This document shows, one piece after another, positions 47,542 to 54,110 of a stretch of 64,000 nt of DNA. A model generated the notes under the pieces. It ran no database searches, had not been told where the DNA came from, and was given only the letters and a program-made list of their open reading frames with translations. The stretch covers positions 5,343 to 69,342 of the forward strand of contig JAKSUC010000011.1 of NCBI GenBank assembly GCA_024413595.1, written 5' to 3'. The number at the start of each line of letters is the position of its first letter. Position 1 is the first letter of the stretch. The stretch comes from Bacteroidales bacterium (GTDB lineage Bacteria; Bacteroidota; Bacteroidia; Bacteroidales; UBA3824). A program made the position numbers and the translations under genes.

Positions 47542-50022
47542 ATGAAAATTAAATTTTATGCTTTGTGTGCATTTCTGACGGCATCATGTTTTGCCAATGC
47601 ACAAGTTGTTATAAATGTGGATGCCTTGCAGAAAGGTCCCGAGATTAGTCCTACTCATTACGGTATTTTCTATGAGGATATAAACCATGCTGCCGATGGT
47701 GGACTATATGCAGAACTTATTCGCAATCGTTCGTTTGAGGATGATTCCATGTTGCCAGATAATAGCGGAAAAATTAGTAATTGGAATGCTGTTGGAAAGG
47801 CTAACATTTCTCTAACTCAGAATAATCTTCTTAATAGTGTTCAGCATAATGCACTTGACCTAAAGTTGACAGCTTCTGGTGATGGTGTACAAAATGAGGG
47901 TTTTTGGGGAATGAATGTGGTTGCTGGTCAGAAATATCAACTCTCGTTTTTTGCCAAAAGTGACCAAGGTTTCAAGGGTACTCTAAATGCAAAACTTGTA
48001 TCAATACAGGGAAATGTGTTGGGCAGTGTAGCAATTAATGTGAAAGCGTCTGTAAAATGGCAAAAATATACCGCCACCATAACCGCTACGGGAAATGATC
48101 CCAAGGCACAATTTGCACTTATCACCGATAAAGCAGGACAACTTCAACTTGATGTGATAAGTCTTTTTCCTCCAACGTTTAAAAATCGTCCAAACGGAAT
48201 GCGTCCTGATTTAGCTCAGATGCTTGCAGATATGAATCCACGTTTTATGCGTTTCCCAGGTGGTTGTTTTGTAGAAGGACAGAATAGTCCTGACAATGCT
48301 TTTCGTTGGAAACGTACAATTGGACCTATTGAAGAACGCGAAGGTCACGCCAATATTAATTGGGGATACCGCACTTCTGACGGTATAGGTTTTCATGAGT
48401 ATTTGCAGTTGAGTGAAGATTTGGGTGCAAAACCGCTTTTTGTGGTAAATGTTGGTATTTGGCATGGTGGCTGCGACCCATACGACAAGATTGACAGTTG
48501 GATTCAAGAATGTTTAGATGCATTAGAATATGCCAATGGTGACGTATCAACTCCATACGGAAAATTAAGAGCCAAGAATGGTCATCCTGAACCTTTTGGA
48601 CTTGAGTATATCGAGATAGGTAACGAAAACTACAACTTTAATATGGATAATAATTCTGATCAATCTGATCATTATCCAGAACGCTATATTCAATTTTACA
48701 ATGCTATTAAGGCAAAATATCCAAACGTGAAATGTATTGGAGATGTAGAGGCGTGGAGTACCGACAATCCAACTTGGCGAAATAGCCATCCTGTAGATAT
48801 GGTTGACGAGCATTATTACAGAAATCCACGTTGGTTTGCCGAACGTTTTAACAAGTACGATAGTTATCCACGAAATCAGCACAAAGTTTATGTTGGAGAG
48901 TATGCCGTTACAAGTCAGTTTGGAGAAATTGGCAATCTTGATGCAGCACTTGGAGAGGCTGTATTTATGATGGGCATGGAAAACAATTCAGATGTTGTGG
49001 CAATGAACTCTTACGCTCCAATTTTTGTAAACGAAAACGATGCGCGTTGGCGTCCTGATATGATACGTTTCAACTCGTATCAAAATATGGGAACTCCTTC
49101 GTATTATATTCAGCAACTTTTTTCAAACAATATTGGCACAAGAGTTATTAAAACAGATTGTACTTGGAATTTGACTAACCCTCAGCCAAAGGTAGAAGCA
49201 CCAAAACCTGTTCAAGTAGGTGTGGCTTCATGGAATACAAACGTTCATTATCGCAATCCACAACTTATTGTTGATGGTAATTTTATTCCGATTGATGATT
49301 TCAACAAATGGGAGTCGATTAGTGGTAATTGGACTGTGGAAGATGGTCAGTATGTTCAACGTTCTAACAATATGCCTGCACTCAGCGTTTGTCCTCAGCA
49401 GATAAATTCTAAAAAGTATTCATATAAGATACAAGCTATGAAAGAATCTGGAAACGAAGGATTTATTCCAGTTGTAGGATATACCGATAAGCGAAACTAC
49501 GATTGGTACAACGTTGGAGGATGGAACAACACCTTAAAAAGTGTTGAGCAGACAACTGAAGGTAGCAAAGGACAAATTGCTAAAGATAAGCGTTTTAGAG
49601 TAGAGGATAACCGTTGGTATAATCTTCAAGTAGATGTTGATGGTGATAGCATTTTCTGTTATATGGAAGGTGAACTTGATTTTGCCTGCAAACGTCAGAA
49701 AGGTGGAATGTTAGAGGGCGTATATGCAACTACCACAATCGACGAGGCTCAAAAGATAATGTACGTGAAAGTAGTGAATATTGGAGATGGTAGTGCTTCT
49801 GGAACTATTAATCTAAAGAATTGTGAGGTTGATAAATCGTCTTCTTCAGCTGTAACCATTACAAGACTTGCTTCTGCCAAAAACACCGACGAAAACACAC
49901 TCGACAATCCAAAGGCAATTTTCCCACAAACAAGCGACATTTCCTCTGACGCGTCAAACAATGTTGTTAACTTCAATGTGATTCCTTTCTCTGCAAATAT
50001 TATCAAAATAAAATTGAAGTAA
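47542..50022 (+). CDS. GH51 alpha-L-arabinofuranosidase with extra beta-sandwich domains
   Basis: GIFYEDINHAADGGLYAELIRNRSFE, RFPGGCFVEG, IEIGNEN, DEHYY, VYVGEYA, SYAPIF. Confidence 0.92.
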   Translation: MKIKFYALCAFLTASCFANAQVVINVDALQKGPEISPTHYGIFYEDINHAADGGLYAELIRNRSFEDDSMLPDNSGKISNWNAVGKANISLTQNNLLNSVQHNALDLKLTASGDGVQNEGFWGMNVVAGQKYQLSFFAKSDQGFKGTLNAKLVSIQGNVLGSVAINVKASVKWQKYTATITATGNDPKAQFALITDKAGQLQLDVISLFPPTFKNRPNGMRPDLAQMLADMNPRFMRFPGGCFVEGQNSPDNAFRWKRTIGPIEEREGHANINWGYRTSDGIGFHEYLQLSEDLGAKPLFVVNVGIWHGGCDPYDKIDSWIQECLDALEYANGDVSTPYGKLRAKNGHPEPFGLEYIEIGNENYNFNMDNNSDQSDHYPERYIQFYNAIKAKYPNVKCIGDVEAWSTDNPTWRNSHPVDMVDEHYYRNPRWFAERFNKYDSYPRNQHKVYVGEYAVTSQFGEIGNLDAALGEAVFMMGMENNSDVVAMNSYAPIFVNENDARWRPDMIRFNSYQNMGTPSYYIQQLFSNNIGTRVIKTDCTWNLTNPQPKVEAPKPVQVGVASWNTNVHYRNPQLIVDGNFIPIDDFNKWESISGNWTVEDGQYVQRSNNMPALSVCPQQINSKKYSYKIQAMKESGNEGFIPVVGYTDKRNYDWYNVGGWNNTLKSVEQTTEGSKGQIAKDKRFRVEDNRWYNLQVDVDGDSIFCYMEGELDFACKRQKGGMLEGVYATTTIDEAQKIMYVKVVNIGDGSASGTINLKNCEVDKSSSSAVTITRLASAKNTDENTLDNPKAIFPQTSDISSDASNNVVNFNVIPFSANIIKIKLK

Positions 50023-50045
50023 ATAAACATAAATACTTTTTAATG

Positions 50046-50084
50046 TGAGTTCAACGAATTAATAATTATGGTTCGTTGAACTCA
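50046..50084 (+). terminator. Stem-loop after GH51
   Basis: TGAGTTCAACGAA...TTCGTTGAACTCA 13-bp inverted repeat (no clear T tract). Confidence 0.6.
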
Positions 50085-50100
50085 TGTTATAATTAAGAAT

Positions 50101-50249
50101 TATTACTGTCCGAGATAAATTCCAAAAACTTAATACGAAGGCTCTACAAATATCCGTAGAGTCTTTTTTTTGAATATTTAACGGATTATGTAAATATAAA
50201 GTTTATTTTTATCTGCGGGTCGAAAAAATTGTTTTCTCGGACACTAATA
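50101..50249. mobile_element. MITE-like non-autonomous element with 15-bp terminal inverted repeats related to the IS4 end at 45788-45802
   Basis: Left TATTACTGTCCGAGA versus rc of right end TATTAGTGTCCGAGA (14/15); right end TCTCGGACACTAATA identical to 45788-45802; internal hairpin at 50140-50163. Confidence 0.7.
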
Positions 50250-50299
50250 GTTTATAATCTAATTTTTATAGGCAAAAGTTATGTTATATATCATTTTAA

Positions 50300-52065
50300 C
50301 TAGACTTTTGATACTCATAAACTATTTTCTAAAAAAATGAATTTTTATTTAATAACTCATAAAAATCTCATTAAATCATAAGCATTAATATTAATGTTCA
50401 ATAAATAATTTTGACATATTTAAAAAAGAATTATTTAGGAGTTCGATTTTGTAACATATAATATTAGGTTCAAATTTTAGTGTTAATATTTAAAACCATA
50501 AAATACAAGGCTTGTTGTGATATAGATTACACAATGAGCAACAAAGTATAAAGACCCTATATTAATAGCAAAGTATATTTTCATATAGCTTTAGGAGTGG
50601 ATTTTTAATACTTTTATATTAAAATATACAATATTTACTCTTAATACGTATAGAAAATATACTTTTTTTCAAAATATAAACACTATAAACTTGGTTGTTA
50701 AAATAAATTGCATAAAAAATAAGTACTCTAAATTCGATGCAATAAATATTAGTGTAAAGAAAAATAGCTTATATTTAGAAGCAAAGAAAATTTTGACCAA
50801 CCCTAAGCCATTAGGGTTAGTTGTAAGTTGTATTGCCACAAACCATGAAGCCTCATACTTAATCACGCTGAGCTACGCTATATAGCTATAGGTGTTGATT
50901 TTTGGAGATAAGTAAATTTATGTAAAATATAATAGCTAGATTTTTAACGTTATAACTCTTTGGATATAATATCTAGTGGTCTAAATTAATAGTTTAGAGG
51001 TTAATAATCTAACCCTAAGAGCTCTATTTTTTGAAAAAATAATTCTTGACATAAGGCTAACCTCTAAATATATATAATTTGTAACTTATGCAACAAAGTA
51101 TGAGGTGTTAGGGTTAATCACTTAGTGGTAAAGTGACAAGGTATGAGGTTGTATGGTTTGCCATTCAAACACTTGACATAAGGCTAAATGAGTCATTTTT
51201 TTTTGGTGACCAGCTCAATATATAGCTAAAGCAGAAATTTTTTAACGCTCAAACGCTCAGCATGAGGCTTTAGCAGAAATTTTTTAACGCTCAGACGCGC
51301 GGCATAGGGCTAGAGCATAAATATTTTGACGCTCAAACTCTCAGCATAAGGCTAAAGAATAAAATTCTTTAAACTGAGAGAAAAAGTGATAAAGTATGAG
51401 TTTTCATGGTATATCGGTTAGTGGCTAAGTGATTAAATACGGGAGGTCGTATTTTACCACTTAGAAATTAGGCAACAAGAAATTACGCCTAAAGCCTGCC
51501 TACAAGCTAAAGAGCGTTAAAAAAAAAAGTCTCAAGCCTACCTCATTTCGGCGGGACAAAAAAATATTATTTCTCAAGCCTTATGCAGAAAATCCGGGCA
51601 AAAAATAAATTCTTCTCTAGCCCTATAACAAGATACTTGGCAACAAAAATTTTCTTCTTCAGCCTATTGCATAGGTTTATTACTACATAAATGAAGAGGT
51701 CGATGCTTGTAGCTGAGCAACTGAACAAAATTGAGAAAAATGATAATGACCCTATTTTTTTTTGTTTTTTAAGTGTTAAAGACGTAATATTTGATGCAAA
51801 GAGTTTAAGCGACGAAATTAAAGCCATAATATTTTACATCAAGAAACTTTGCATCAAAATTAAAGGTCTAATATTCGATGCTGAGAATGTTAGCATCCAA
51901 AATAAAGGTCTAATATTCGATGCAAAGAGTGTAATCATCCAAAATCGAGCAATAATACTTTACACAAAAGTTATTGCACCCAAATTGAAGAACTCAATTT
52001 GTGATGCAATAACTCAATGTTGAAAAATATTAGCCATTATACTTTACACAAGATTGTTGTTAATA
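50300..52065. repeat. Degenerate 42-bp-period repeat array with orientation switch, no credible long ORF
   Basis: Units start at 51225/51267/51309/51351; reverse-complement-related units at 51489/51531/51573/51615/51657; AAAGGTCTAATATTCGATGC at 51862 and 51904; ACTCATAAA at 50313 and 50355. Confidence 0.75.
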
Positions 52066-52126
52066 AAAAAAAAGTAGTTTTTAGGGGTGTGGTCTAGTAT
52101 AATTGGAAAATTAATAGAAATATGAG

Positions 52127-52351
52127 TTAATATAATTACGAGTTACGAATTACGAGCTAAGTAATTCAAAATTCAAAAATGAATATGTAGCTGAAAGAAT
52201 TTGTGTTTTTTTTTAACATTTTTTATAAATATTTCGTATTTTTGAATTGGAAAAGAAAAAGCTTAATATAATTACAAGTTACGAATTACGAGCTAAGTAA
52301 ATCAAAATTCAAAAATCAAAATTCTAAATTCAAAAATCAAAATTCAAAAAT
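52127..52351 (+). repeat. Two 54-bp direct repeats built from heptamers (TTACGAR, TCAAAAW)
   Basis: 52127-52180 and 52263-52316 differ at 2 positions; the second continues with further TCAAAAT/TCAAAAA-type units to ~52351. Confidence 0.85.
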
Positions 52352-52367
52352 TAAAAAATATATTTAT

Positions 52368-54110
52368 ATGAAAAAAACATCATTATTATTATCTACATTA
52401 GCTGTAATATTATCAGCATGTGGAGGAGGTTCGGGCAATTCAAATAGTGTTCAGAATGTTCAAGGAGAAGGTGAAACCGAAAGTTTAAAACCTCAAAAAG
52501 AAATTCATGTGTCAACTGCAGAAGAGTTTATAAATGCTATTGGCAATGATACTCATATTATTCTTGATGATAATATCTTAGATCTTCAAAGTATTGTGGA
52601 TTTAAAAGTTCAAAATGGTAAGATTTCTAAAGTTGAATATGAAAATGAAGATTATAGAAAACCTATAAAACAAGATAATGCAGTTGTTGCTTATGGATAT
52701 GGTTCTTATAGCAATAATCAATTAAACTTTATGTCTTTAAACAATTTTACAATTGATGGAGGTAAAGATAGATATTGTATTTGTTTAGACTCATACGAAG
52801 CAGATGTTCTTTCTTTTGTATTTTGTAAAAACATTACAATCAAGAATATTATTCTTGGTCACGAACCAACAGCTGGTTGTGCTGGTGGTGTAACTAAATT
52901 TTTTGAATGTTCTAATGTAACAATCGAAAACTCTCAATTGTTTGGTTGTGGCGAAATTGGTATTGATGCTACAAAATGTAACAATTTTACTGTATCTAAA
53001 TCTGATATTTTTGATTGTTCTTATGCTGGTATCGAAGTAAATGATATTAGTAACTTTGCCTTTAATAATTGTAATTTTGCTGACTTAGATACAGATGTTC
53101 TTAACTTTTGGGAAGATTGTAAAGATGTAGTTTTCAATAATTGTGTGTTTGATGTTGAAAATTATGAAACAAATAATCCAAATGCAAATAAAATAACCTA
53201 CAATAATTGTAAAGTAGATACAAGCCTTAATTTCCCTGATTTGTGGTCTGAATTAGTTGGTGGTTTTGGTTATGATGGTTATTATGAAGGAGAAGAATTT
53301 GAGTATTATGGTGATAATCCAGATGAAGGACCAGATCCTGTTGAACTTGAATTTGATGATGTTAAAGGTTCTTTTTCAGACAAAGTAATTCATGTTAAAA
53401 CAGGTCAAGAATTTATCAAAGCTCTTGGAAATAATAGAACAATTATTGTTGATAATGATATATTAGATTTTTCATATTGTCTAGGAGATTTAATCGACAA
53501 TGGCGAAATATCACAAGAATCAGAAGGAAAACCTGCAATTCCTGGTATATATTGCACCGACAATTTTGATGGTTGGGGTCTTAAACTAAGTCATATTTAT
53601 AATCTTAAGATAGAAGGTAAAAATAAAGAGACACATATTCAAATAGAACCCAAATATGCAGATGTTTTATATTTTGAATTTGCTAAAAATATAGAACTTA
53701 AAAATCTAAAACTAGGACATAAAGAAAAAGGAGATTGTGAAGGAGCTGTATTACATTTTAATTCATGTCAAGATATAGAAATAGAAGATTGTAAACTCTA
53801 TGGATGTGGAGTTCAAGGAATTTTTGCTGCGTATTGTAATAATATTGATGTAGAAGATACTGAAATATATGAATGTAGCGAAACAGGTTTGTATTATAAT
53901 GTAGTTAAACAGAGTAAATGTAAAAATTGCAAATTCTATCAACTTGCAAATCCTTTGATTTTAACTAATAGCTATGTAACATTCAAAAAGTGTAGTTTTG
54001 ATGTTGAATATTGGAATCCTGATTATACAAACAATGGTTCTAAAGATAATCCAGTTGTATTCGATAATTGCGATATTAAATATAAGAATGTGATGGAATA
54101 CGGAGACTAA
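52368..54110 (+). CDS. Lipoprotein with two tandem right-handed parallel beta-helix domains
   Basis: LSAC lipobox; halves begin IHVSTAEEFINAIGND / IHVKTGQEFIKALGNN and share ADVL.F, LGH...GC.G.V, L.GCG..GI. Confidence 0.75.
   Translation: MKKTSLLLSTLAVILSACGGGSGNSNSVQNVQGEGETESLKPQKEIHVSTAEEFINAIGNDTHIILDDNILDLQSIVDLKVQNGKISKVEYENEDYRKPIKQDNAVVAYGYGSYSNNQLNFMSLNNFTIDGGKDRYCICLDSYEADVLSFVFCKNITIKNIILGHEPTAGCAGGVTKFFECSNVTIENSQLFGCGEIGIDATKCNNFTVSKSDIFDCSYAGIEVNDISNFAFNNCNFADLDTDVLNFWEDCKDVVFNNCVFDVENYETNNPNANKITYNNCKVDTSLNFPDLWSELVGGFGYDGYYEGEEFEYYGDNPDEGPDPVELEFDDVKGSFSDKVIHVKTGQEFIKALGNNRTIIVDNDILDFSYCLGDLIDNGEISQESEGKPAIPGIYCTDNFDGWGLKLSHIYNLKIEGKNKETHIQIEPKYADVLYFEFAKNIELKNLKLGHKEKGDCEGAVLHFNSCQDIEIEDCKLYGCGVQGIFAAYCNNIDVEDTEIYECSETGLYYNVVKQSKCKNCKFYQLANPLILTNSYVTFKKCSFDVEYWNPDYTNNGSKDNPVVFDNCDIKYKNVMEYGD

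Follow-up and report, generated by a model that had tools for sequence, protein, structure and literature searches.

A mirror-image array of 42-bp repeats, probably a decaying minisatellite, in a Bacteroidales genome

Background

Does a gene-free interval filled with degenerate 42-bp repeats hold an undescribed kind of genetic element, or is it one more product of the processes that multiply short sequences in bacterial genomes? The question is raised by a gap of ~2.3 kb (50023-52367) in the compact genome of an uncultured Bacteroidales bacterium of the gut, 88% of which lies in long open frames. All coordinates refer to the window, the whole 64,000-nt stretch of contig JAKSUC010000011.1 (assembly GCA_024413595.1) that was analysed, unless another contig is named. 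A preliminary description of this DNA singled out 50300-52065 as its best candidate for an undescribed element, a non-coding array of about 40 units with switches of orientation, and proposed that it might be a helically phased DNA-architecture array, a processed repeat RNA, or a relic or reservoir of repeat-protein cassettes.

Several known systems offer points of comparison. Bacterial variable-number tandem repeats (VNTR) and minisatellites, MIRU among them, consist of head-to-tail non-coding units of tens of bases that arise by slippage or recombination, their defining property being a copy number that varies from strain to strain. The sopC centromere of the F plasmid is composed of 12 repeats of 43 bp, each with a conserved inverted-repeat binding site, and lies beside the sopAB partition genes, and the Foldback transposons of eukaryotes carry long terminal inverted repeats built of tandem subrepeats. 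Two families from Porphyromonas gingivalis are closer to the present case in host (PMC4596501): PgRS (MITE464), in which a MITE bounded by terminal inverted repeats and present in many dispersed copies encloses tandem direct repeats of 41 nt, and BrickBuilt, a MITE with a 23-nt minisatellite and a leader and tail with inverted-repeat ends, which is present in 19 copies per genome and has shown promoter activity in Escherichia coli reporters.

Results

Extent and composition of the array

The 42-bp periodicity claimed in the preliminary description is far above chance, with lag-42 identity reaching z = 12.4 over the whole gap and 11.6 over 50300-52065 and with harmonics at 84 and 126. The motif coordinates that it quoted were all exact on re-check: ACTCATAAA at 50313 and 50355; CTTGACATAAGGCTAA at 51045 and 51172; AAAGGTCTAATATTCGATGC at 51862 and 51904, with TTCGATGCAA at 50733; TTTTTTAACGCTC at 51238 and 51280, with its counterpart GAGCGTTAAAAAA at 51512; and GCATAAGGCT at 51344, with its counterpart AGCCTTATGC at 51577. 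The proposed extent stands from ~50660 on and fails to the left of it, where no 42-bp period is found at 50300-50650 (sliding-window z < 2.3) and lag-42 z is -0.4 over 50023-50700, so that the ACTCATAAA pair falls outside the periodic domain. That domain, ~50660 to 52065, is ~1.4 kb long and contains three strong local lag-42 windows (51118-51412, 51454-51706 and 51748-52000) and one weak window (50656-50866, z 3-4). The estimate of 40 units was too high: about 20 are recognisable and the domain has space for ~33, and TRF by itself makes two calls, of only 3.5 and 4.1 copies. The predicted sub-periods of 21 and 7 are absent, with z = 0.3 at lag 21 and z = 3.2 at lag 7, the latter lower than at the side-lags 43 and 85.

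The units stand head to tail with no spacers between them, the whole unit is repeated, and identity from unit to unit across the array is now only ~50-85%. A CRISPR array was considered and rejected, since the units abut at 42 bp and repeat over their whole length, and the true CRISPR periods of this genome are 64-66, 72-73 and 77. A REP or BIME cluster was likewise set aside, the units being mostly non-palindromic and the sequence single-copy.

Four blocks can be distinguished, together with a central hairpin and a motif outside the array register whose copies form separators between the blocks (Table 1). In block A, TRF reports 51225-51372 at period 42 (3.5 copies, 77% matches), the core units have 32-36 of 42 bases in common, the local lag-42 z rises to 13, and ACGCTCA is present twice per unit. 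In block B, whose units share 20-25 of 42 bases, the core AGCC[TC] recurs at 51493, 51535, 51577, 51619 and 51661, in exact 42-bp steps. Block C, overlapped by an open reading frame of 110 aa, is reported by TRF at 51785-51957 (period 42, 4.1 copies, 70%), and its units share 22-35 of 42 bases. In block Z many unit pairs show an in-register identity of 20-22/42, for which the 99.9th percentile of shuffles is 21, and lag-42 z is 3-4.

Table 1. Parts of the periodic domain and associated motifs (window coordinates)
Feature	Position	Strand	Description
Block Z, outer left arm	50679..50972	+	~7 highly degenerate 42-bp slots
Block A, inner left arm	51141..51392	+	6 slots; well-kept units at 51225, 51267, 51309
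Central hairpin at symmetry centre	51416..51455		~16 pairs, one bulge
Block B, inner right arm	51477..51686	-	5 units; reverse complement of A
Block C, outer right arm	51771..52064	-	7 slots; best pair at 51855, 51897
Non-array "punctuation" motif AAAGTATGAGG...CACTTAGTGG...	51093..51160	+	two partial copies
"Punctuation" motif, more copies	51386-51432; 50839-50866	+; -	all copies: repeat families D5, D6; inverted pairs I5, I6, I25

Mirror symmetry

The orientation switch between blocks is stronger than had been claimed. Blocks A and B match as reverse complements with z = 16.3 against shuffles and z = 0.9 in direct comparison; aligned over 121 columns, 51559-51678 and the reverse complement of 51251-51370 are 67% identical. 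The outer pair behaves likewise, Z against C giving z = 8.8 as reverse complement and 5.6 directly, with the best alignment, 50895-50972 against 51787-51864, at 69%; the unit profile of block C also matches the minus strand of block A at 51348-51324 (E = 2.8e-4 within the gap). Inverted 24-mer windows number 294, where five shuffles gave 7-28, and two residue classes of (i+j) mod 42 take in 186 of them. With both the inner pair A/B and the outer pair Z/C related as reverse complements, the domain is therefore a nested degenerate palindrome of ~1.4 kb, Z-A-hairpin-A'-Z'. At its centre 51400-51480 folds as DNA to -9.8 kcal/mol on the minus strand (z = -4.6; plus strand z = -3.0), and the hairpin there is the apex of a long A:B fold. 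The anti-diagonal centres of the inverted matches span 51380-51507. Block A has stops in all six frames, and the earlier picture of a non-coding 42-bp array with blocks running both ways holds. Mirror-image arms recur elsewhere in the same genome, at C145:820-1319 (reverse-complement score 53 against 14 direct).

Genomic setting and searches for other copies

The array lies between an arabinofuranosidase gene upstream and a beta-helix lipoprotein gene downstream. The nine neighbouring genes scanned with Pfam yielded only glycoside hydrolases, the beta-helix lipoprotein, TPR, LysM, MreC, KARI and an ATPase, with no DNA-binding, partition or replication gene among them, in agreement with the earlier statement that no cognate enzyme gene adjoins. 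The nearest relatives of the KARI, at 95-96% identity, are in Bacteroidales MAGs. A MITE-like repeat occupies 50085-50270, ~400 bp to the left of the array, and a heptad tract lies at 52299-52359. GC skew and gene orientation switch at ~54.2 kb, 2-3 kb from the array; this switch could mark a terminus, with only 11 kb of contig beyond it.

Within the 3.94-Mb, 94%-complete assembly, unit profiles and BLAST recovered only this locus, and the flanks of the periodic domain are not repeated elsewhere in the genome. When the gap was compared with 40 relatives by BLAST, no convincing match to the array appeared, the only hits being the MITE (50085-50264), the heptad tract and a few short AT-rich pieces; AT-rich pieces of 26-86 nt in 14 of 300 genomes of the order (E = 2.6e-5 to 8.7e-4) were taken as low-complexity chance. 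Motif scans over the genomes of 185,579 species found 25 and at least 119 loci, scattered over many phyla; among the matches listed, every locus had one match only and none was tandem. Nothing similar was found in collections of plasmids and phages. Attempts to locate the orthologous position through the flanking genes failed: identity to the downstream lipoprotein does not exceed 43% across 24 genomes of the genus, and for the upstream arabinofuranosidase the ceiling is 42% within the genus and 74% among 80 metagenome loci, none of which holds a 42-bp array. An orthologous locus in a sister species was thus not found among genus genomes and metagenomes, and because of this the decay and origin discussed below are read from within the locus only.

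Variation between samples

In three gut metagenomes the array is ~99% identical and its unit count unchanged, a comparison of copy number that consists of low-depth contigs only. Contigs from three DNA runs in three studies extend over 51155-51975, 51374-52078 and 50557-51128, ungapped and with 3-6 substitutions. Between samples the array has 6 substitutions in 821 nt, and the flanking genes have 4 over 344 nt and another 4 over 283 nt. A 44-bp deletion allele (51338 to 51383) appears in one contig each of runs X1 and X17, with 32 letters on the shorter side of the junction. From X17, a run recorded as RNA, there is also a contig of 241 nt that matches 51441-51681 with a single mismatch, although RNA libraries may contain DNA and such contigs carry neither strand nor end information. 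The same run has no contigs over the rest of the array or most of the upstream gene, which at its low depth is not evidence of absence.

A preferred unit length in this genome

TRF finds 6, 8 and 7 non-coding arrays in this genome with periods of 41, 42 and 43, and none with periods of 39-40 or 44-47. Thirteen of the 14 sequence families with units of 38-47 bp have units of 41-43 bp, and these are mutually unrelated. A second peak of unit length lies at 19-22 bp, the lengths in between being avoided, and ~0.95 Mb of related contigs show peaks at 22 and 44 bp. Many of the other arrays are 88-100% alike between units, against 50-85% here; young 41-43-bp arrays lie, for example, on contigs C24, C53 and C152. 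Arrays of this kind break short-read assemblies: among the 27 with units of 41-43 or 83-85 bp, 14 touch a contig end. Four of the 27, all of one unit family, lie within 500 bp of one MITE-like family (genome background 1%). We found no description of this pile-up of unit lengths in the literature searched, where the only published cases found were those of P. gingivalis, with units of 23 and 41 nt. We know of no mutational explanation for so sharp a preference across unrelated arrays; a protein or some constraint from selection might lie behind it.

Discussion

Origin of the array

We read 50660-52065 as a single-copy, species-specific, non-coding 42-bp minisatellite that was locally amplified, then inverted, and is now decaying, and we put the probability of this reading at roughly 0.6. 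On this account a 42-bp unit would have been amplified head to tail through slipped-strand mispairing or unequal recombination, and the same process, with its fixed unit length, would have built at least 13 other, unrelated 41-43-bp array families of the genome. The mirror arms may have formed by an inverted duplication, through template switching at the central hairpin; alternatively, a palindromic seed may have grown outwards on both sides. Later, once homogenisation had ended, the units would have diverged by point mutation. The array today is most likely inert spacer DNA that yields neither protein nor conserved RNA, with a copy number nearly fixed within the species.

Some observations stand against the decay reading. 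A compact genome has kept a gene-free gap of 2.3 kb; the array is no more substituted between samples than the flanking genes, and neutral junk need not stay so alike, although the sameness may simply mean that all samples belong to one young species. The RNA-library contig of 241 nt and the sharp 41-43-bp preference also stand on this side.

The array is a further case of the fixed-unit-length non-coding repeats common in Bacteroidales and not a new kind of element; among described repeats, PgRS (41 nt) and BrickBuilt (23 nt) of P. gingivalis come closest to it. PgRS shares with it a Bacteroidales host, non-coding tandem direct repeats of about equal unit length and a lineage-specific unit sequence that finds no match outside the lineage, whereas the present array is single-copy, lacks MITE ends, is far more diverged and has mirror-image arms. 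BrickBuilt is likewise an intergenic, spacerless minisatellite of the Bacteroidales, with a 23-nt unit near the 21-23-bp peak of this genome, but it differs in its leader and tail with inverted-repeat ends and in its dispersed copies, neither of which was found here. Because the genome holds many unrelated 41-43-bp arrays and P. gingivalis supplies a published precedent (PMC4596501), the label of undescribed element is unsupported.

The array also resembles a VNTR in its head-to-tail, non-coding units within the 10-100-bp range; its unit count is constant in the low-depth contigs of three runs from three studies, except for the 44-bp deletion allele.

Alternative readings

An unlikely alternative is that the array was a phased platform for a protein, with one site per 42-bp unit and the two arms facing each other, in the manner of plasmid centromere or iteron arrays. 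The unit corresponds to four helical turns and is held at 41-43 bp in 13 unrelated families, core motifs such as the five AGCC[TC] occur once per unit at exact spacing (ACGCTCA being doubled in block A), and the mirror layout is seen again at C145. sopC has a similar unit (~43 bp, four helical turns), yet the units here are degenerate, only 4 of 20 (A3, C3, C5 and C6) fold better than 95% of shuffles at the best rotation of each, and no partition gene, or other DNA-binding or replication gene, is among the nine neighbours. A-tracts show no 10.5-bp phasing over the array (R = 0.12, p = 0.68), which leaves helically phased architecture, as first proposed, without positive support, and no related array occurs in any other genome searched. 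With the units diverged to 50-85% identity, most binding sites would be lost.

A transcribed non-coding RNA, either a ~500-nt imperfect hairpin running through A, the centre and B or a smaller RNA of hairpin and block B, with an antisense, regulatory or processed role, seems to us quite unlikely. It would account for the contig in X17, subject to the limits given above, and for the folding of 51150-51700 (plus strand z = -5.1, minus strand z = -5.4) and of block C (z = -3.8 and -6.1 on the two strands), but equal folding of both strands is what a DNA palindrome is expected to show. Rfam gave no family match over 49500-52900 at E up to 1, and no homologues were seen. No terminator-like sites were found inside the array, and sigma-70-like sites number 15 against 16.9 expected from shuffles, a comparison tempered by a consensus that does not cover Bacteroidota promoters. 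The processed repeat RNA of the preliminary description accordingly gains nothing positive. Three chance-level Rfam matches, two to snoRNAs and one to an sRNA, were discarded, being far under gathering scores and all outside the periodic domain.

We regard as very doubtful the derivation of the array from a foldback-type mobile element or MITE remnant with long terminal inverted repeats of tandem subrepeats. Its mirror arms are composed of subrepeats, and the genome has MITE-like repeats, one of them adjacent and one family enriched near arrays (4 of 27 against 1%); the locus, however, is single-copy, the adjacent MITE is complete in itself and has no sequence in common with the array, and neither a target-site duplication nor terminal repeats common to another locus were seen. 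The neighbouring MITE was also considered as a carrier of the array and rejected, only 4 of 27 arrays, all of one unit family, lying near its family.

The weakest candidate, a relic gene (or cassette reservoir) for a protein of 14-residue repeats, is already largely refuted: the period is divisible by three (42 bp = 14 codons) and the 110-aa frame over block C has a 14-aa periodicity, but that frame is the longest present, as the claim of no long ORF implied, and has no Pfam match, a search of 5.8 billion proteins gave it no homologue between 60 and 193 aa long, block A has its stops, the check on differences between units proposed earlier showed no codon-phase or third-position bias, 0 of 31 stop-to-stop peptides match Pfam and 0 of 31 the rest of the genome, the arms are oppositely oriented, and sister arrays have periods of 41 and 43, impossible as coding repeats.

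Implications

Beyond the minisatellite reading, it is conceivable, though we think it improbable, that the array is a fossil of an undescribed length-measuring process or protein in Bacteroidales that makes non-coding repeats almost only in units of ~21 or ~42 bp (two and four helical turns) whatever their sequence, with mirror arrays born of a central hairpin, here and at C145:820-1319, as its signature. If that were true, arrays could serve as phased binding platforms while young; and as the skew and orientation switch is 2-3 kb away, this one might also have a part in organising the chromosome or arresting forks.

Taken as a decaying minisatellite, the locus itself matters little; what it contributes is one data point on the unit-length pattern. 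As a long, old, mirror-image example it indicates that such arrays can persist and invert and are not purged, and, set beside the young arrays of the genome, it supplies a time axis for modelling how they originate, from 95-100% identity between units when young to 50-85% when old.

Extent and anatomy of the array

The array lies within a 2.3-kb gene-free gap (50023-52367; 27% G+C). Over this gap the identity at lag 42 stands at z = 12.4 against shuffled sequence, with harmonics at 84 and 126, and the motif coordinates of the preliminary description all proved exact on re-checking. The 42-bp periodicity reported there is real, but its extent is smaller than the 50300-52065 proposed: a sliding window of 126 nt picks up a strong signal at 51118-51412, 51454-51706 and 51748-52000, a faint one at 50656-50866 and none at 50300-50650, and 50023-50700 gives a lag-42 z of -0.4. 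Tandem Repeats Finder (TRF) by itself detects just 3.5 copies (51225-51372) and 4.1 copies (51785-51957). Together the window signal and the TRF extents place the periodic domain at ~50660-52065, which fits ~33 units, ~20 of them recognisable, rather than the ~40 first estimated. The sub-periods that had been predicted at 21 and 7 bp did not appear, lag 21 giving z = 0.3 and lag 7 reaching z = 3.2, a value that the side-lags 43 and 85 both exceed. A phased protein-binding platform is an unlikely account of the array.

When the domain is divided into 42-nt slots, with 51225 setting the register, four direct-repeat blocks emerge, here called Z, A, B and C (see table).

Features of the gene-free gap and its borders (window positions)
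Feature	Position	Strand	Remarks
Arabinofuranosidase gene	47542-50022	+	826 aa; left neighbour of gap
Stem-loop	50041-50089		perfect, 19 pairs; z = -5.5; directly past arabinofuranosidase stop codon
MITE-like dispersed repeat	50085-50270		~185 bp
MITE terminal inverted repeats	50092-50118 and 50232-50258
MITE internal terminator-like hairpin	50137-50166		followed by T-run
Block Z	50679-50972		in-register identity 20-22 of 42 (shuffle 99.9th percentile 21)
Block A	51141-51392		in-register identity 32-36 of 42, three core units
Central hairpin	51416-51455		~16 pairs; minus-strand z = -4.6
Block B	51477-51686		in-register identity 20-25 of 42
Block C	51771-52064		in-register identity 22-35 of 42
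Punctuating ~40-nt motif	50839-50866, 51093-51160, 51386-51432		unrelated to the units
Direct repeat, 60 nt	52127-52186 and 52263-52322		93% identity; 136 bp spacing
Heptad (7-nt) tract	52299-52359		TCAAAAT / AAATTCA type; periods 14 and 21 too
Beta-helix lipoprotein gene	52368-54110	+	580 aa; right neighbour of gap

Blocks A and B are reverse complements of one another (z = 16.3, versus 0.9 for the direct comparison, against dinucleotide shuffles), the best local alignment pairing 51251-51370 with 51559-51678 at 67% identity over 121 columns; the orientation switches noticed earlier are this mirror symmetry of the blocks. Blocks C and Z are likewise related, with a reverse-complement z of 8.8 and a direct score of 5.6, the latter arising because C units are partly self-complementary, and the C-unit profile also matches block A on its minus strand. 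A count of inverted 24-mers with 17 or more matches gave 294, compared with 7-28 in five shuffles; 186 of them belong to two (i+j) mod 42 classes, whose centres of symmetry lie at 51380-51507, the site of the central hairpin. The inverted block pairs and this hairpin together make a nested, degenerate palindrome, Z-A-hairpin-A'-Z', punctuated by the ~40-nt motif.

RNA folding and coding potential

Folding is strong on either strand, both for the segment running from A through the centre to B (z = -5.1 and -5.4) and for block C (z = -3.8 and -6.1). Two-strand folding is what a DNA palindrome yields, and so no strand-specific structure is indicated; only four of 20 single units beat 95% of shuffles as hairpins, most units not being hairpins, and a search of the array against Rfam returned no known RNA family. 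From a sequencing run recorded as RNA (X17) comes a 241-nt contig covering 51441-51681; its presence in that run does not show transcription. A transcribed hairpin or antisense RNA is quite unlikely.

The array does not code for protein. No open frame runs through block A, which has stops in all six frames, and the 110-aa ORF over block C belongs to no Pfam family and has no homologue at E <=0.01 among the 60-193-aa proteins of a 5.8-billion-protein collection. That the array is a relic or reservoir of repeat-protein cassettes, as had been suggested, is hardly credible, since none of 31 stop-to-stop peptides of at least 25 aa matches Pfam or, by tblastn, the rest of the genome, and in A, B and C the differences among units show an even spread across the three codon phases. 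Periods of 41 and 43, which cannot be codon repeats, occur among the sister arrays of the genome.

Neighbouring elements

BLAST returns 58 hits to the MITE-like repeat beside the array, spread over 39 contigs and often close to their ends; two further species of the genus (G001 and G006) carry copies that are 92-98% identical. The repeat has no sequence in common with the array, and on these comparisons it is treated as an independent insertion; of the 27 arrays whose units measure 41-43 or 83-85 bp, only four are found within 500 bp of its family, all four of one unit family. In Porphyromonas gingivalis, PMC4596501 describes BrickBuilt, with a 23-nt repeat, and PgRS/MITE464, with a 41-nt repeat. 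Those repeats lie within MITEs, whereas the array here did not behave as a member of a MITE family; although mirror-symmetric, it is very unlikely to be a foldback-type MITE remnant.

The stem-loop past the arabinofuranosidase gene is probably its terminator or stabilising hairpin. The heptad tract lies immediately upstream of the lipoprotein gene, and similar tracts match in 15 of 24 genus genomes and in several other families. One contig of run X1 has a 36-bp joint that goes back at this tract, suggesting a copy-number variant, and a contig of run X6 steps back 136 bp (52262 to 52127), suggesting an allele with an additional 136-bp copy of the direct repeat. Both GC skew and gene orientation switch at ~54.1-54.6 kb, from plus-strand genes with positive skew (~9 kb to 54 kb) to minus-strand genes with negative skew up to the contig end; with just 11 kb of contig beyond, the switch may mark a replication terminus or merely a local change of gene orientation.

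Uniqueness and population variation

The source genome (G000), whose contig C13 supplies the window (5343-69342), is a 3.94-Mb draft of 195 contigs, 94% complete, in which neither unit profiles, proposed earlier as a means of finding further arrays, nor BLAST located a second copy. Neither 40 relatives nor 300 genomes of the order yielded a convincing match to the array core, and plasmids and phages yielded none; scans with two motifs over one genome per species gave, among the matches listed, only single and scattered ones, and the orthologous locus was not found among the relatives' genomes and metagenome loci searched. The KARI protein of the window has its closest relatives (95-96% identity) in uncultured herbivore-gut Bacteroidales, and the array stretch is found in runs from animal gut metagenomes. 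Three DNA runs, each of a separate study, supply low-depth contigs that span 50557-51128, 51155-51975, 51374-52078 and other pieces with 3-6 substitutions each and no gaps, a density about that of the flanking genes. A single contig in each of X1 and X17 jumps from 51338 to 51383, omitting 44 bp; such an allele would have lost roughly one unit by deletion.

A class of arrays with 41-43-bp units

A TRF census of the source genome retained 782 non-overlapping arrays, which were split by overlap with long open frames. The non-coding ones concentrate in two ranges of period, 19-22 (n = 88) and 41-43 (n = 21), with none at 39-40 or 44-47, six at 83-85 and four at 53 bp; the 22 with periods of 38-47 form 14 sequence families, 13 of them at 41-43. 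Of the 27 arrays having units of 41-43 or 83-85 bp, 14 reach a contig end. Census peaks at 64-65 and 126-130 were set aside as a CRISPR array on contig C57 (37.7-54.7 kb; ~29-30-nt repeat, 64-66-bp period, ~17 kb). Further CRISPR arrays lie on C68 (32.5-37.4 kb; ~36-nt repeat, 72-73-bp period) and C136 (12.1-13.9 kb; ~47-nt repeat, 77-bp period).

A second locus, C145:820-1319 (also C32:4629-5140), carries two 43-bp arrays in mirror-image orientation, with a reverse-complement score of 53 versus 14 direct and 65% identity over 203 columns as reverse complement. One of these arrays lies between short inverted repeats of TTAACATTTGTTAAC type. Across 948 kb of sequence drawn from loci of relatives and metagenomes, the non-coding arrays group at 22 bp (n = 13, all of different sequence) and 44 bp (n = 3). 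These adjoin arabinofuranosidase relatives (loci L066, L070, L073, L074, L100, L101 and others), and several 22-bp units have palindromic cores, for example TGCAAACGTTTGCA and AAATCAATTTGATTT.

Origin of the array

The best-supported reading, to which we give a probability of about 0.6, is local amplification followed by inversion and drift. A 42-bp unit would have been amplified locally by slippage or unequal recombination; inverted duplication at the central hairpin, or growth in two directions from a palindromic seed, would then have produced the mirror image; and, once homogenisation had ceased, the units would have drifted. The data directly show the blocks, their symmetry, the absence of coding and the single-copy state, whereas we infer this order of events, and also that the array is now inert. 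The array, put forward earlier as a candidate undescribed element, is instead a Bacteroidales non-coding minisatellite, a known kind, and is unusual solely in its length, age and mirror symmetry. Our literature search found no relevant general description of a unit-length rule in Bacteroidales, and the interest lies not in this locus but in a question about the class, namely why unrelated arrays of this order keep to units of ~21 and ~42 bp.
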